A stretch of 64,000 bases of DNA. It comes from Gammaproteobacteria bacterium. Lineage in GTDB: Bacteria > Pseudomonadota > Gammaproteobacteria > UBA4575. The position numbers and the translations under genes were made by a program. A model generated the notes under the pieces. That model searched no databases, was not told the DNA's origin, and saw only the letters and a program-made list of their open reading frames with translations. The stretch spans positions 128,001 through 192,000 of the forward strand of contig CBDCUI010000009.1 in NCBI GenBank assembly GCA_965222615.1, written 5' to 3'. The stretch's first letter is position 1. Every line of letters begins with the position of its first letter. Positions 28,477 to 36,366 of the stretch are shown here, in pieces.

Positions 28477-29361
28477 ATGACTGAAGTTCAAGATTTAACA
28501 TTCGAGATTAATGATGAAACAGCTCGAACCATAGATGAAAGTTCTTTCAGCTTGGATACAGAGATTCCGGGCTATGAAGTAGTTGGTATTTGCGGTAGTG
28601 GTAGCACTGCTAAAGTTTATGTAGCTATCCAAAAATCATTAAGCCGTCAAGTCGCACTAAAAGTTATGCATCCTCGTCTAGCGTCTGATGAGGAACGTGT
28701 CAGCCGGTTTTTACATGAAGGACGCATAAATGGAAATCTTTCTCATGCCAATATCGTGCCGATTCATAATATTGGAACAGTAAATGATATGCACTACATT
28801 TCGATGGAATATATGCCTTGGGGTAATTTACGTCGACACCTCGAAACTAAACTTGAGCTTGATTGGATATTTGAAATTATAAAGCAAATTGCATTAGCTT
28901 TATCTTATTCACACGAACATGGGTTCATTCATCGAGATATTAAGCCTGAAAATATTTTATTTCGGGATGAAAACTCGGCAGTTCTCTCTGATTTTGGTAT
29001 TGCAGATGAACTAGAGCATCGTACTGAAATTATAAGCAAATCGAATCAAGGCACACCTAAGTACATATGTCCTGATCTGATTCGTTCTAGTCCAATTGGT
29101 CCTAGCTCTGACATTTACTCCCTAGGGGTAGTATTTTTTGAAATGCTTACTGGCAACCCTCCATATGAAAGTGGGACGCGACCCTACACAAGAAAAGATA
29201 CAATAACGGTTCTATTTGCACATTTGCGTAAACCAATACCTGAATTACCACCCGAATTCCAACACATACAACCTTTAATTAATAAAATGTTGGCAAAGGA
29301 TCCTAAAGACCGCTTTTATAAGGCAAGTGATGTAATTGAAGCGATTGCAAGCCTTAGTTAA
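28477..29361 (+). CDS. Soluble kinase-only Ser/Thr protein kinase, paralogue of 9338..11716
   Basis: VALK, HRDIKPEN, DFG, GTPKY, DIYSLG; no TM helix. Confidence 0.9.
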   Translation: MTEVQDLTFEINDETARTIDESSFSLDTEIPGYEVVGICGSGSTAKVYVAIQKSLSRQVALKVMHPRLASDEERVSRFLHEGRINGNLSHANIVPIHNIGTVNDMHYISMEYMPWGNLRRHLETKLELDWIFEIIKQIALALSYSHEHGFIHRDIKPENILFRDENSAVLSDFGIADELEHRTEIISKSNQGTPKYICPDLIRSSPIGPSSDIYSLGVVFFEMLTGNPPYESGTRPYTRKDTITVLFAHLRKPIPELPPEFQHIQPLINKMLAKDPKDRFYKASDVIEAIASLS

Positions 29362-29941
29362 AAGTTTACTGATAGCTTTTTGCTATATACAGCCATTTTA
29401 AAAAAGATAGAGTGCTGAACATTTAATAGCGCAAAATAAATTTTTTATAAAAATTTGTTGTTAATTTGCAAACACGTCCTAGCCTCTAATTTATATATTA
29501 AACAGTAAGTTATATAAATTTATTAAAGTTGTATAATAGCTTTGGTCAATTCGATATTACGCTGTATTTCAACTCCCCAATAGGTGCGTTAACCAGCAAT
29601 ACATGTTCGCGGGCATATAAAGGCATTAAGTAAACCTTATTCCTTAATACATACTTTTTATGGCGGATATTTGATAAGTAGGCATTTAGGGACTAGGATT
29701 TGTATTATTTATGGACTAAATATAATTAATTTGTCCTGAATCAATAGAAAATCAGATTTTCATTGCCATAGTTGATATCTGGTTAAGTGCTATAAAACCA
29801 TTAGCACTCATCCCTAAGTTAGGCTCTAACCCTGTCTAATGCATATACCTTAATGTTTGGGCATGCATCAAGTTATGCGCACTTTCTGAATAAGATATGC
29901 AAAAGAAAGTTAATTTAGAAATAGAACAAGGAGAGTTTTTT

Positions 29942-31300
29942 ATGAAAAAGATAATCTTTTTTTCAATGTGTGCACTGATAATCGTACTTCCATCTATTGT
30001 CACTGCCACCAATGGCTACTTTGCCCATGGTACAGGGCTGATTAATCGTTCTCTTGCAGGTGCTGGTGTTGCTTTTCCACAAGATGCCATGGCGGGTGCC
30101 ACAAATCCTGCAGGTATGGCTTTTATCGGCAACCGTTTTGATATTGGAGCGGTTTTATTTAAACCCGATCGTGATTATTCCGCTGGGCCTAGTCTTGCCA
30201 ATGGTAATGGCGGTGCTTTTACTATTGGGCCGGCATCGGAAAATAGTGGCGACGAAAATTTCATCATTCCAAGCTTTGGGATCAATTATATGCTGAATGA
30301 TCGAAATGCTATCGGCTTGTCCATTTATGGTAACGGCGGTCTAAACACTACTTATGATGGGGGCAGTGCCTCGTTCGATCCATTTGGTATGGGTGGTGCA
30401 GGCATCACGTTCCCGGGCACCTTTGGTGCAGGGACGGCAGGTGTGGATTTATTTCAAATCTTTTTCAATTTTTCTTATGCCCACAAGTTTACAAATAACT
30501 TTTCAGTAGGCATTAGTCCAATATTTGCACTGCAGGGTTTTCGTTCCGCAGGGTTGAACGCCTTTGCACCTTTTACCAAAACCTTTGCCCAAAGTGGTGG
30601 CATGGCGATGCCCATGAATTTAACCCGTAATGGCCAGGAGTATTCCTATGGAGGCGGTGTGCAAGTTGGAGCTTTAGCACGAGATGTAATGGGTACAGCC
30701 GATTTTGGAATTTCATATCGTTCAAAAATGTATATGGATGAATTTGATGATTATGCTGATCTGTTTGCAGAAGAGGGTGACTTTGATATCCCATCTACTT
30801 TATGGGCAGGATTTGCAGTAGATCTCACACAAACTGTCACCTTAATCGCTGACTATCAAAAGATTTGGTATGACGATAGTGACGCAGTTAGCAACGATAT
30901 ACAAAATCTATTTAACTGCCCAACTTTAGGAGGCTCTGATTTTGAAAGTTGCTTGGGTGGTGAGAATGGTGCAGGGTTTGGTTGGGATAATATCGATATC
31001 ATAAAAGTTGGACTACAGTGGCAAACTCACCCTGACGTGACGGTGCGTTTTGGTTATAGCCATACCGACCAACCTATCGATAGTGATCAGGTGTTATTTA
31101 ATATTCTTGCGCCTGGTGTAATAGAGGATCATGTCACTATCGGTGCAACGATTGAAACTCAAATGGGTAAATTTAATCTAGAGGCCATGCATGCTTTACA
31201 TCATTCTGTTAAAGGTGCGAATCCTTTTGACCCAACTCAACAGATTCGGATTAAAATGAATCAATTTGAAATCGGAGCAAGCTGGTCCAAAGAGTTCTAG
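29942..31300 (+). CDS. fadL: FadL/OmpP1-family outer-membrane hydrophobic-compound transporter
   Basis: Signal peptide, TNGYFAHG, NPAG, GFGW, NILAPGV, terminal Phe; ATG 29942 with GGAG RBS. Confidence 0.88.
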   Translation: MKKIIFFSMCALIIVLPSIVTATNGYFAHGTGLINRSLAGAGVAFPQDAMAGATNPAGMAFIGNRFDIGAVLFKPDRDYSAGPSLANGNGGAFTIGPASENSGDENFIIPSFGINYMLNDRNAIGLSIYGNGGLNTTYDGGSASFDPFGMGGAGITFPGTFGAGTAGVDLFQIFFNFSYAHKFTNNFSVGISPIFALQGFRSAGLNAFAPFTKTFAQSGGMAMPMNLTRNGQEYSYGGGVQVGALARDVMGTADFGISYRSKMYMDEFDDYADLFAEEGDFDIPSTLWAGFAVDLTQTVTLIADYQKIWYDDSDAVSNDIQNLFNCPTLGGSDFESCLGGENGAGFGWDNIDIIKVGLQWQTHPDVTVRFGYSHTDQPIDSDQVLFNILAPGVIEDHVTIGATIETQMGKFNLEAMHALHHSVKGANPFDPTQQIRIKMNQFEIGASWSKEF

Positions 31301-32879: not shown

Positions 32880-33616
32880 TGTTTAGACAAATTTATTACG
32901 AGTAATTTAGTCTTGCGTTGTTTAATTTCATTTTTCACTTTGACAAGTGATTTTTCTAACTCTTGTGCAATAATAATTGCTTCATAGTTTTTATTTGCCT
33001 GTTCAACTTTTTTATAGGATGTTGCTAATTCTTTTTGGTATTTTCCAATTGTTGATTCGGGGTCATTGATATCACTCGTATAGTGCTTGTAAAAAGTTGG
33101 GTCTTGTTTAAATGTGTATACCAATGAGACGTATGCTACTGCAAAATGAGTGCTGTAGGCCTTATACTCATCCAGAGTTTGCACTGTGTTTCGTGCCTGT
33201 TTAATTTTATTATTAAACGTATCGCAATAGCCAAGTAATTTTTTCTTGTAGTCACCTGTTACGTCATACTCATTTACAAGCTTAGTTATAATTTCTGAAA
33301 CCTGTAAGCGAATATCATCGTATGCAATTAAAGTATTGAGTAACTCTTGCTCAATTGTTGCCAGTGACTTTTGATTTAGTTTGAGTGACTGCAACGCAGA
33401 TTCGAGCTCGTTCTTTAATACTATTAATTTTTCATGTGAGATGTCGGAAAGATTCTCTGGTAGGCCATAAGCAGCTATTGTTTTAGTTACTGTAGGATTT
33501 TCGTAGTGCAGAGAATCTGCAAATACATGAGGAATCGTACAAATAAAAAATATGACAAATAGTGCTATATGTAAAAACGTTTTAGTGTAAATGTTTTGAT
33601 GGTCTATATTAGACAT
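32876..33616 (-). CDS. Hypothetical exported helical/coiled-coil protein
   Basis: 246 aa, signal-like N-terminus ending VFA-D; GGAG RBS; overlaps the rhodanese start by 4 nt. Confidence 0.7.
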   Translation of the reverse strand: MSNIDHQNIYTKTFLHIALFVIFFICTIPHVFADSLHYENPTVTKTIAAYGLPENLSDISHEKLIVLKNELESALQSLKLNQKSLATIEQELLNTLIAYDDIRLQVSEIITKLVNEYDVTGDYKKKLLGYCDTFNNKIKQARNTVQTLDEYKAYSTHFAVAYVSLVYTFKQDPTFYKHYTSDINDPESTIGKYQKELATSYKKVEQANKNYEAIIIAQELEKSLVKVKNEIKQRKTKLLVINLSKQ

Positions 33617-33681
33617 GTGTCCGTTCTCCTAGCCCGTTAGTTGATATCGTTGTCTCATTTATTGGGCTAACTAAACGGCAA

Positions 33682-33736
33682 CGCTTTAGCAGTATTTTGT
33701 AAGCCGCCCTGCAAGTTGTTTGATTAAACCGGCGAC
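33682..33736 (-). promoter_or_regulatory. Second SAM-II-like riboswitch aptamer
   Basis: GUCGCC-GGUUUA..CUUGCAG-GGCGGC..AAAAUACU-GCUAAAGCG; P1 stem pairs; pseudoknot motifs UUGC/GCUAAA present. Confidence 0.65.
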
Positions 33737-33739
33737 CAT

Positions 33740-33771
33740 AAAAAAACCCATCTAAGCACTGCTTAAATGGG
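33740..33771 (-). terminator. Intrinsic terminator between the two aptamers
   Basis: CCCAUUUAAGC-AGU-GCUUAGAUGGG followed by U7. Confidence 0.85.
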
Positions 33772-33783
33772 CCCTATATCCCT

Positions 33784-33834
33784 CGCTTTAGCGGTACTTA
33801 TTGTGCGCCCGCAAGCTGATGCTCAAATCGGCGC
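33784..33834 (-). promoter_or_regulatory. SAM-II riboswitch aptamer
   Basis: GCGCC-GAUUUG-AGCAUCAG-CUUGCG-GGCGC-ACAAUAAGUACC-GCUAAAGCG matches the SAM-II pattern (P1, GAUUU, UUGC, A-rich linker, GCUAAA). Confidence 0.8.
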
Positions 33835-33843
33835 CTAATATGT

Positions 33844-33872
33844 AGCTTAATTATAGGTATAAGTTTTGTCAA
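33844..33872 (-). promoter_or_regulatory. Sigma70 promoter driving the riboswitch leader
   Basis: TTGACA (33872-33867)-N17-TAAGCT (33849-33844), about 10 nt before the first aptamer. Confidence 0.7.
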
Positions 33873-34106
33873 TACTTATATTAAACTATTTTCCCCAAAT
33901 TAAGTGCCAGTGGCTTAACCAGAGAACTCTGTCACAGTGTCAATACACAGGCTACCTAGTTGGGATTAATTTATACCTAATTTTAATTAAAGCAGCGTGA
34001 TATTTTTGCAGATAAGATCTCAGTACGCTACAGAGTTAATATAGCGGTGGATTGTTGCTCTCAGATAGCAAATAAATTTATCGATTTACTTCTAGAATAA
34101 GAACAA

Positions 34107-34880
34107 ATGCCTAATTCCTTTTTGATTCAGTTATTTACACTTATTTGCCTGATAAGTTTCATTCCTTTGAAGGCAGTTGCTAAATGTACAATAGAAGAAG
34201 TCGAATTTTTTTTAGATAAGGGCTTTTCTCAGGAACAGATAACTCGCTTATGTTCAACTGCTAGTGGCCAAAATTGCCCTCCTTGTCCGAAAGAAAAAAC
34301 CTTAACTCAGCTAGAAATAGCAGACATTTGTAAAGCATCTAATTCTGCTAGTTTAGATTGTAGTAAATGCCCTCAACAATCAGTAACAGGTACGACAAGT
34401 GAATCTTCGCAAGAAATTGATGAAACTCGACAAAACGTTGCTCTAGTGCACAAAGCCGACTCATCTCAAAGCGAACGAGAGGCAATTCAAAAGTTAAAAA
34501 TAGCGGGGGACATACTAAATTTCGATGTCGATCCCGAGAAAATAAAATATACCAAAAGAGTTTGTGTGTTTTCCGGTGATGCACAAGCAAGGGGCAGACG
34601 TCGTGAATATTGCCACGGTATTAATTACACAATCACGCGTCGCAATTTACAAGCAAGTCCTGGCAAAACGCTACCGATAATTGGTACACCCAATGCATTA
34701 ATTGTTGGCGATATATCGTTGGAATTGAATGGCAGTCTAAAAGAATATCCGTCTGAAGTTCGTAAACAATTAGAGGCATATGTTAAGGATAATCAAGGTA
34801 AAAATGAAACTAATTTTCCTGCACGTGAGGAATTTTCTGTTGCGGAGATTGTTCAAGCTTTGCAAACGCTTTCACGTTAA
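34107..34880 (+). CDS. Hypothetical exported Cys-containing protein
   Basis: Signal peptide AVA-K; CPPC and CSKC motifs. Confidence 0.7.
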   Translation: MPNSFLIQLFTLICLISFIPLKAVAKCTIEEVEFFLDKGFSQEQITRLCSTASGQNCPPCPKEKTLTQLEIADICKASNSASLDCSKCPQQSVTGTTSESSQEIDETRQNVALVHKADSSQSEREAIQKLKIAGDILNFDVDPEKIKYTKRVCVFSGDAQARGRRREYCHGINYTITRRNLQASPGKTLPIIGTPNALIVGDISLELNGSLKEYPSEVRKQLEAYVKDNQGKNETNFPAREEFSVAEIVQALQTLSR

Positions 34881-34929: not shown

Positions 34930-36366
34930 ATGGCATCAATAACAGAAAATATTTCGGGTATAAAGCAAAGTAAAATAATTTATTTTATTCCTTCGTTCTT
35001 AATTCTATTTTTTTTCAGCTTATCTTTTTTACCGCGTATCCAACAAAACGAAAATCTTATTTATACCTTTTGGTGGGTAAGTATCATACTCGTACTCTTG
35101 TATGGATTCGTATTATTTTTTCTTCTGAAAAACAAAATAATACCAAGTATACGCGTAGTACTACGACCATCGCACTATGTGCAAGCTATGGTTCAACTTG
35201 GAGTTTATATCTATTGGGGATGGTATTGGCGACCTGTTTATGAACAGGCTACATTGATCCTTGCGCAGCTAGTATTCCTTTATATATTAGAAGCACTCAT
35301 ATCATGGGTACGAGGTAGACAGTGGTATTTAGGTTTTGGCGTCTTTCCCATCATATTTAGCATCAATTTATTTCTTTGGTTTAAAGACGATACTTTTTTC
35401 TTACAATTTATAATGGTGGCCATTGGAGTACTAGGAAAGGAGTTTATTACATGGAATAAAGAAGGGCGTATTACTCATATTTTTAATCCGTCTGCCTTTG
35501 CATTATCAGTAGCTGCAATGCTGTTAATAGTAACCAATAATTCCGAGATTAGTTGGGGGCATGCGATTGCTAACACATTAGCTTATCCAGAATATATTTA
35601 CGTATGTATATTTGCTCTTAGTCTAGTCGTCCAATATTTATTTCGAGTAACTTTAGTAACACTTTCGGCAGCAGTAACCTTAGTTCTAATTGGTTTAATT
35701 TATTTTAAATTGACAGGGGTGTATTTCTTTATCACCTCCGATATTCCCATAGCCGTATTTCTCGGTTTACATTTATTGATAACAGATCCTTCCACATCGC
35801 CGCGTACGGATTTTGGTCGCGTTCTATTTGGAGCCTTGTATGGAATTAGTGTAATAATATTATTTGCTGTGCTGAATCAAACGGGGTTCCCTACCTTTTA
35901 TGACAAGTTATTGGCGGTGCCGATATTAAATCTGACTATTCAAATGCTTGACCGTGTGGCTAGAGGCATTGACTTTTCTAAATTTTGGCCAGAGGAATTA
36001 CGATTTAAGTTTACGCCACACCAACTAAATCAATTGCATATGGCAATTTGGATTATTTTCTTTTTGAGCTTATTTTCTGCAAATAAGTTTGGTAGTTCGC
36101 ATGCAGGGCGGAATTCCGGCTTTTGGGAACAGGCATGTGATAAAAACTTACGCAATGCTTGTCATAATTTATATGATCTAATGGCAAATGAATGTGCTAA
36201 AGGCCAACCAATTGCGTGTGCAAAACAGGGCTGGATGACACGCAATGCTGTTGGCACGGTGCGTGATGATAAAAAGGCCTTTGAGTTGGTTGACCATGCC
36301 TGTGACCTTGGTTTTACTGAAGCCTGTACTCGTCTTTATGAGGGTGAGTTTAACTACGAAAAATAG
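34930..36366 (+). CDS. RnfD/NqrB-like polytopic membrane protein with C-terminal Sel1-like repeats
   Basis: HIFNPSAF and ITDPSTSP motifs, many TM helices; C-terminal ACD..AC Cys-paired helical repeats. Confidence 0.7.
   Translation: MASITENISGIKQSKIIYFIPSFLILFFFSLSFLPRIQQNENLIYTFWWVSIILVLLYGFVLFFLLKNKIIPSIRVVLRPSHYVQAMVQLGVYIYWGWYWRPVYEQATLILAQLVFLYILEALISWVRGRQWYLGFGVFPIIFSINLFLWFKDDTFFLQFIMVAIGVLGKEFITWNKEGRITHIFNPSAFALSVAAMLLIVTNNSEISWGHAIANTLAYPEYIYVCIFALSLVVQYLFRVTLVTLSAAVTLVLIGLIYFKLTGVYFFITSDIPIAVFLGLHLLITDPSTSPRTDFGRVLFGALYGISVIILFAVLNQTGFPTFYDKLLAVPILNLTIQMLDRVARGIDFSKFWPEELRFKFTPHQLNQLHMAIWIIFFLSLFSANKFGSSHAGRNSGFWEQACDKNLRNACHNLYDLMANECAKGQPIACAKQGWMTRNAVGTVRDDKKAFELVDHACDLGFTEACTRLYEGEFNYEK

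Follow-up and report, generated by a model that had tools for sequence, protein, structure and literature searches.

The stretch of DNA considered here is a 64-kb window on contig CBDCUI010000009.1 of a gammaproteobacterium. At positions 33617-33872 its minus strand, which was read from 33400 to 34100, carries the 5' leader of an operon of two genes, and this is the element in question; coordinates are positions of the window unless a contig (C) or locus (L) is named. This leader very probably consists of two complete OFF riboswitches for S-adenosylmethionine (SAM), both of the SAM-II class, placed in series. Behind it stand the genes of P0001, a 246-amino-acid (aa) protein, and P0002, a rhodanese. 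An earlier note on this DNA had proposed that tandem SAM-II-type riboswitches, a transcriptional tier followed by a translational one, control an exported protein and a rhodanese, and much of that description holds. Aptamer 1, a terminator with an 11-bp stem and U7, aptamer 2 and a GGAG ribosome-binding site (RBS) are all present on the minus strand in this order; the two reading frames overlap by 4 nt, the first opens with a signal-peptide-like N-terminus, and the second matches PF00581 at 56 bits against a cut-off of 22.2. As to what the leader is for, we tentatively propose that the riboswitch pair drives a switch between paralogs: at low SAM a methionine-purged isoform would replace, or be added to, a methionine-rich envelope protein, and the sulfurtransferase would be raised together with it.

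The two aptamers and their class

At the curated thresholds of Rfam the window yields two tRNAs only. In a scan of positions 33500-34000 by E-value, SAM_alpha (RF00521) was the sole riboswitch family to match, and it matched both segments below its cut-off; SAM-V (RF01826) and SAM-II long-loop (RF01726), the other models with which the earlier note had suggested searching, gave no match at E <= 10. The RF00521 gathering cut-off of 36 bits is an annotation criterion rather than a structural feature, and the printed consensus structure of the family contains no pseudoknot. Over the whole 3.1-Mb genome the best three RF00521 matches are the three copies of aptamer 1 (28.2, 24.6 and 23.8 bits, the next being 18.8), and the top score in 14 related loci is 32.1 bits. 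Both segments align with the consensus blocks GAUUUGA, GCUUGC and CGCUAAAG, whose roles in the triplex and the SAM pocket are known from the published structure.

The leader DNA has two paralogs in its own genome and relatives in 11 others of the 40 genomes first searched. From an alignment of 25 homologous aptamers (A1) we built a covariance model, R1. Positions T11-T13, G46, C47, T48, A49 and A50 are invariant across all 25 and match L1 GAUUU and the tail CGCUAAAG of the Rfam consensus. The P1 stem is supported by covariation, with 95.8% of cells paired and three of six pairs varying on both sides (for example U-A in 12 aptamers versus G-C in 11), and the pseudoknot GCUUGC/GCUAAAGC is paired in 88.2% of cells, four of its six pairs being present in 23-24 of 24. 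The whole aptamer structure is 92% paired, as compared with 25-42% when the partner is slid. Searched against its own genome, R1 finds seven aptamers at 58.7-74.4 bits, with the next match at 17.4, and one of the seven (C8:832305-832358) lay outside the training set. Aptamer 2 aligns with aptamer 1 in one and the same model and is comparably conserved (67.3 versus 68.7 bits), and it carries A, not G, ahead of CUUGC. Two points weigh against the assignment to SAM-II: neither aptamer reaches the RF00521 cut-off (aptamer 1, 23.8 bits, E 0.0031; aptamer 2, 14.0 bits, E 1.4), and the pseudoknot columns of A1 are nearly invariant and so show no covariation. Judged by sequence and alignment, we nevertheless hold with high confidence that these are SAM-II-class aptamers missed by the Rfam threshold.

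The promoter named in the earlier note, TTGACA-N17-TAAGCT, is there as letters; its -10 element matches TATAAT at only 3 of 6 positions, for which reason a promoter scan makes no call at this place. By reading, TTGACA-N16/17-TAnnnT stands at the equivalent place in five homologous leaders (L002, L006, L007, L008 and L017). As a side observation, the strand antisense to a SAM-II aptamer and its terminator gives matches to RF02424 (Bp2_287, a candidate sRNA of Burkholderia), in the window at 33755-33830 on the plus strand (15.2 bits) and at L007:1562-1696 (29.9 bits) and L012:1465-1581 (25.5 bits). None of them reaches 70, the cut-off for this family, which may represent a SAM-II riboswitch read from the wrong strand.

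Table. Elements of the leader and its operon, and related riboswitch loci and genes elsewhere
Feature	Position	Strand	Details
Promoter-like element	33844-33872	-	TTGACA 33867-33872, 17-nt spacer, TAAGCT 33844-33849
SAM-II-class aptamer 1	33784-33837	-	RF00521 23.8 bits, R1 68.7 bits; P1 GCGCC/GGCGC (5 bp), 33830-33834 with 33805-33809; L1 GAUUU 33825-33829; loop opens GAUUUGA, closes GCUUGC (33811-33816); tail UACCGCUAAAGCG terminates at 33784, its 3' element GCUAAAGCG at 33784-33792
Intrinsic terminator of riboswitch 1	33740-33771	-	11-bp GC-ended stem, 33761-33771 with 33747-33757; loop AGU; U7 tract 33740-33746; also called by a pattern scan, as 33775-33743
SAM-II-class aptamer 2	33682-33738	-	RF00521 14.0 bits, R1 67.3 bits; P1 33731-33736 with 33703-33708; L1 GGUUU; loop strand ACUUGC; tail UACUGCUAAAGCG, its GCUAAAGCG part at 33682-33690
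Proposed anti-sequestor hairpin	33648-33683	-	CGUUGCCGUUU 33673-33683 with AAAUGAGACAACG 33648-33660; has CG in common with the aptamer 2 tail
RBS-sequestering hairpin	33621-33678	-	CCGUUUAGUUAGCCC 33664-33678 with GGGCUAGGAGAACGG 33621-33635
RBS and start codon	33614-33629	-	GGAG 33626-33629, closing the 65-nt stretch beyond aptamer 2, then ATG 33614-33616
P0001	32876-33616	-	246-aa ORF; signal-peptide-like N-terminus, all-helical domain, no internal Met
P0002	32451-32879	-	142-aa single-domain rhodanese; start overlaps the P0001 stop
Tandem pair in the window		-	precedes P0001 and the rhodanese
Tandem pair	C7:799231-799389		precedes a 66-aa ORF, metF (PF02219, 331 bits) and an ORF read as metH
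Tandem pair	C9:1112363-1112520		precedes a 147-aa ORF, then a MetY-type enzyme (PF01053, 305 bits)
Single aptamer	C8:832305-832358		precedes a 154-aa ORF (L032)
Member of the ~150-aa family	C8:831791-832237	-	L032:984-1433
Member of the ~150-aa family	C9:1112572-1113021		L017:1726-2169
Members of the ~150-aa family			L003, L005, L007; L056:1624-2064

P0001, the rhodanese and methionine content

By reading, the signal peptide of P0001 would be cleaved after VFA, and the AlphaFold2 model of the protein gives an all-helical domain with a pLDDT (the confidence score of the model) of 80.3. Neither P0001 nor a paralog of it scores above any Pfam or NCBIfam cut-off, and Pfam was also silent for 18 distant relatives. 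The model has no Foldseek match in the PDB at E <= 0.001; a wide VIA-align search gave apolipophorin III as its best hit at Z 8.1, which is the background level for helical bundles, and the best ESM Atlas score, 0.79, is to unnamed clusters. Among 1.84 billion representatives searched with a profile, the superfamily has just 68 clusters at E <= 0.001. Close homologs of P0001 number thirteen. The paralog, at 27-36% identity, is found in 54 of 56 genomes searched in the bacterial family, the copy of this genome lying at C7:59637-60290, and where the source names it, it is almost always a "hypothetical protein".

It is in methionine that the two kinds of protein part. Over the 195-aa domain the P0001 clade has on average 0.73 Met (range 0-2, with none in 8 of 15 sequences), against 6.88 (range 1-11, n = 99) in the paralog clade; averaged over the genome, Met makes up 2.0%. 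At the columns aligned to residues 163, 165 and 166, where the paralogs are 96-99% Met, and at the one aligned to residue 183, where they are 81% Met, I, L, V or A stands in 15 of 15 members of the P0001 clade, which forms one branch with a support of 100/100 and has long internal branches. So persistent a purging of Met, from the SAM-repressed copy of a protein found throughout the lineage, would fit a methionine-sparing isoform. In the mechanism that we propose, SAM would repress both the rhodanese and an exported helical protein that is the nearly Met-free paralog of a protein found in 54 of 56 genomes searched. Under a shortage of SAM or methionine, the cell would then make the Met-sparing isoform of the envelope protein along with a sulfurtransferase, which, induced at low SAM, could pass sulfane (reduced) sulfur towards MetY.

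Paralogs that spare an element have precedents in the sulfur-poor phycobiliproteins of cyanobacteria and in the zinc-free ribosomal protein paralogs controlled by Zur, and the sulfur sparing of yeast is another such case. In these systems a second copy of a protein, without the scarce residue or cofactor, is made only in shortage, and the proposal for P0001 is alike in this respect. It differs in its sensor, which would be a SAM riboswitch, in sparing methionine, and in concerning a protein with no assigned function. Our literature searches found no case of a riboswitch-controlled amino-acid-sparing isoform. If the proposal is true, P0001 would be the first one known, and amino-acid economy by isoform switching would extend to riboswitch control; it would also offer a handle on an abundant-looking, uncharacterised envelope protein of uncultured sulfur-oxidising Gammaproteobacteria.

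There are, however, a number of observations that weigh against the sparing proposal. Among the 977 ORFs of 180-320 aa in the same genome, 49 are also without Met after residue 45. The depletion traces to one ancient duplication, and it is one evolutionary event, not 15. An aptamer was seen upstream of four of the 15 clade members, and riboswitch control of the other 11 is assumed. The rhodanese stands behind the P0001 homolog in only two of the four aptamer-bearing genomes. With these points counted, composition and phylogeny make a sparing role conceivable and worth proposing, somewhat short of an even chance.

The four genomes just mentioned, in which an aptamer lies directly ahead of a P0001-type gene, belong to four genera (G000, G014, G011 and G013); the loci L037 and L038 are apparently the same as L004 and L002 and were counted once. 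In G013, which is of a different genus, a SAM-II aptamer is followed by a 252-aa homolog and then by the orthologous rhodanese, as in the window. An ABC-2 exporter comes after the homolog in G011, and nothing after that in G014.

The rhodanese itself carries an active-site loop CRSGKRS with Cys88, which aligns with CRSGNRS of PDB 2FSX ("COG0607 rhodanese-related sulfurtransferase"; 134 aligned residues, E 5e-23), so that the two share a CRSG-x-RS loop. Its C-terminus is WEQC, as in the G013 ortholog, and WQQC in the G002 copy. Homologs are plentiful, with more than 4000 at E <= 0.001, and the best 120 lie at 64-80% identity, three of them bearing the names of sulfur oxidisers. The gene is single-copy in its own genome and was found in only 3 of the 56 family genomes. 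In G002 it stands alone beside ORFs whose translations read as gcvT/H/P-like, and R1 finds no aptamer at that locus. A literature search for "SAM-II" with "rhodanese" turned up no rhodanese in a SAM regulon in print.

An alternative of some weight is that P0001 is a neofunctionalised envelope protein that acquires sulfur together with the rhodanese, its low Met being the usual bias of proteins made in starvation. In two genera, G000 and G013, the gene pair does come after a SAM-II aptamer. The organism is, by its gene content, a Dsr-type sulfur oxidiser, with a cluster of dsrA, dsrB, dsrE, dsrF, dsrH and dsrC at C8:199500-204500 (L064; NCBIfam equivalogs above their cut-offs), and a PF01507 query on its genome returned only TilS and GuaA and no CysH/CysD-type assimilatory enzyme. 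The P0001 clade has also gained a conserved Cys in the motif GYCDTF (mean Cys 0.87 versus 0.11), and at L038 a gene for an ArsR-type helix-turn-helix domain fused to a rhodanese domain (L038:5990-6625) lies 2.3 kb downstream of a P0001 homolog and an ABC-2 exporter. Against this alternative stands, besides the incomplete co-occurrence of the two genes, the location of their products: by reading, the rhodanese has no signal peptide and P0001 looks exported, and therefore direct contact between the two is not expected. Neither fold nor family searches hint at a function, and enzymes of the same regulon are not depleted in Met (rhodanese 2.1%, MetF 1.7%, MetY 2.1%, MetH 2.6%); two proteins of a ~150-aa family in the regulon, described below, have 0.68%. 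Taken together, this makes a sulfur-acquiring P0001 rather unlikely. The earlier note had pointed to an unrecognised sulfur or methyl-donor acquisition function for both genes, which may still apply to the rhodanese; the composition of P0001 points to a Met-free isoform instead.

Proposed switching of the two tiers

The first riboswitch would act on transcription. With SAM bound, the tail element GCUAAAGCG would be held in an H-type pseudoknot with GCUUGC, and the terminator, which is within the minimum-free-energy (MFE) structure of 10 of 10 tandem leaders folded, would form. Without SAM the tail is free, and the terminator's 5' arm may then pair with it. Across the tandem leaders this pairing is worth -5.6 to -12.0 kcal/mol, and in five of ten leaders no more than 5% of shuffled tails do as well (the shuffled-tail rows for L011 and L012 are meaningless, the automatic detection of the terminator arm having failed there). 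For the copy in the window the tail-arm duplex reaches only -5.7 kcal/mol and is equalled by 13% of shuffled tails, which speaks against an antiterminator at this locus; the folding makes one plausible but weak.

The second riboswitch, about 100 nt from the first aptamer to the second, would control translation from a distance, the ribosome site lying ~55 nt beyond aptamer 2 and being reached through a proposed three-strand platform. In an alignment of 13 homologous platforms (A3), the hairpin that buries the RBS is the MFE structure of 11 leaders, and of 12 when the tail is blocked. The platforms are of two types, and the arms of this hairpin are wholly different in the two, which speaks for selection of the hairpin. 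In the loop, the motif CA-N-CG is present in all leaders except L008, which has CAAUG (12 of 13); it pairs with the strand just after the tail, and the anti-sequestor helix thus formed is 84.6% paired in the 13 leaders, against 21-49% when slid, with two pairs varying on both sides.

In a simple equilibrium picture these elements do not add up to a switch. For the window copy, the RBS hairpin is the MFE structure with the tail blocked or not, the mean probability of the RBS being unpaired is 0.41 in both states, and an enforced anti-sequestor costs much (-10.7 versus an MFE of -21.2 kcal/mol); tail blocking altered RBS accessibility in only 3 of 13 leaders. All of this tells against an equilibrium switch, and because equilibrium folding gave no change in accessibility here, we propose a co-transcriptional, kinetic three-strand model. 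The anti-sequestor is the MFE structure of the nascent RNA at 48-60 nt (-8.6 kcal/mol) and gives way when the sequestor's 3' arm has been transcribed. In kinetic folding without SAM, CGUUGCCGUUU would pair first with AAAUGAGACAACG, leaving GGAG open and the gene ON; with SAM, the tail would be captured, and the strand next to it would close the long hairpin that buries GGAG, turning the gene OFF.

The same folding results could be read to mean that the first riboswitch alone is regulatory, and that the second aptamer and its hairpin are constitutive or decaying, which would leave single-tier control. The RBS hairpin is, after all, predicted whatever the state of the tail, and by reading the ribosome site of the L006 platform is degenerate and the ORF after the L008 platform is reduced to 17 codons. 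Yet aptamer 2 is conserved as well as aptamer 1, it keeps the same platform where it stands alone, ahead of metY-type genes (L009, L010, L015 and L016) and of the 154-aa gene at L032, and the near-invariant CA-N-CG of the 13 leaders pairs with the tail-proximal strand. Single-tier control seems to us improbable.

The earlier note had proposed two pairings in this part of the leader, and both exist in the sequence. UAGCCC/GGGCUA is the inner part of the longer conserved hairpin; CCGUU(U)AGUU/AACUAACGG belongs to this copy alone. When enforced it gives -9.1 versus -21.2 kcal/mol for the MFE, a cost of 12 kcal/mol, and it was rejected as a conserved element.

It should be said that the architecture of this RNA has already been published, and that the cargo is the new part. 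Sherlock et al. (2022, RNA Biol 19:1059, PMC9481103) report 44 SAM-II doublets, some of them with a terminator after the first aptamer and control of the ribosome site after the second, called "bi-mechanism". What these doublets have in common is two SAM-II aptamers in one leader. The window leader has the same two aptamers, the first followed by an intrinsic terminator, and its GGAG is predicted to lie inside the conserved hairpin of 11-12 of 13 leaders; it differs in cargo, the main text of that paper naming neither an exported protein nor a rhodanese, and in its distant ribosome site, ~55 nt past aptamer 2 and linked to it by the proposed three-strand platform. A tandem of SAM-II and SAM-V, with termination first and translation second and both responsive to SAM, is described for 'Candidatus Pelagibacter ubique' (PMC9481103; PMC11508383). 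The earlier note was right to cite that tandem; in taking it as the sole precedent it overlooked the published SAM-II/SAM-II doublets. The order of tiers in the window is alike, and the second aptamer is different, as it is not SAM-V (no RF01826 match at E <= 10). The SAM-II riboswitch of metA in Sinorhizobium meliloti, described as "controlling translation at a distance" (PMC9373788), likewise has its start site outside the pseudoknot, and, as described there, differs in having a single aptamer, ahead of a methionine biosynthesis gene, in an alphaproteobacterium. In the set of genomes studied by Leyn et al. 2014 (PMC4239095), as far as its account goes, SAM_alpha was confined to alphaproteobacterial groups.

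Regulon and origin of the leader

Of the seven aptamers of this genome, six stand in three tandem pairs and one stands singly, and paralogous copies of the leader stand ahead of metF-metH and metY-type genes, which are methionine genes. Searched against 56 genomes of the bacterial family, R1 is positive in 20, with 38 aptamers in all and 11 tandem pairs in nine genomes; most of the family aptamers looked at stand ahead of metY-type genes. In a sample of the class with one genus per family (151 genomes), 71 have matches and four have tandem pairs, and our genome is the richest in copies; among the 71 positives are two unpublished genomes, G094 and G196. In two other families, single copies lie ahead of genes whose N-termini are, by reading, of the Cys/Met-PLP type. 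As the Rfam threshold misses the window pair and R1 is positive in 71 of 151 genomes, SAM-II appears to be under-annotated in this class.

A riboswitch regulon normally points to the function of its genes. Here it flags two families that have none assigned, the 246-aa exported protein and a ~150-aa protein that has 0-1 internal Met and, within ALACAE and ECDxEFL, two invariant Cys. The gene of the latter is the first behind SAM-II aptamers in several genomes, often immediately ahead of a metY-type gene, and in G186, from a different bacterial family of the class, a tandem leader likewise has a member behind it (hhalign probability 99.9). Our genome has one more copy, the third, at C8:842512-842955, without an aptamer and without the first Cys. 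No match was found in Pfam (two members scanned), in NCBIfam (five) or by Foldseek. Possibly the protein helps MetY, by relaying sulfur or in a redox role. At L009, L010, L015 and L016 the platform of riboswitch 2 is followed by only a short ORF (<60 aa) before the metY-type gene, and these short versions, together with the degenerate ones at L006 and L008 mentioned above, look like stages in the decay of the ~150-aa gene.

The leader of metF-metH is 80% identical to that of the window over 229 nt and has the same platform type. The 66-aa ORF that follows it (L013:1738-1938, on C7) overlaps the start of metF and aligns with the part of P0001 that holds the signal peptide, with identity at 12 of 34 residues (E 0.012); searched against the profile of the P0001 family it is the second-best of 584 ORFs (E 0.0011, the next being 0.12). 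It appears to be a relic by which metF is now coupled to translation under riboswitch control. Because this relic in the metF-metH leader resembles the signal peptide of P0001, the sequence comparison speaks for the P0001 leader as the one that was copied, to metF, and not the reverse. The earlier note had allowed that a methionine gene once stood behind the leader and gave way to unrelated genes, and the fact that most family aptamers looked at precede metY-type genes could be taken that way; the idea is contradicted by the P0001-type gene behind the aptamer in four genera and by the relic before metF in a leader so similar to ours, and we give it very little credence. Equally far-fetched is a look-alike of SAM-II that senses another ligand, such as S-adenosylhomocysteine (SAH) or a SAM analogue, for which the sub-threshold Rfam scores and the A that replaces G before CUUGC in aptamer 2 might be cited, since the blocks GAUUU, CUUGC and GCUAAAG of the SAM_alpha consensus are invariant or nearly so and the regulon is one of metF-metH and metY.

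Divergent from the leader, on the plus strand, are a 257-aa ORF of no family (34107-34880) and a 478-aa ORF (34930-36366) that is NQR2/RnfD-like at 17 bits, below the cut-off. Also on the plus strand, a gene for a 294-aa eukaryote-type Ser/Thr protein kinase (28477-29361; PF00069, 184 bits) adjoins one for a 467-aa FadL/TodX-like outer-membrane protein (29897-31300; PF03349, 50.5 bits).

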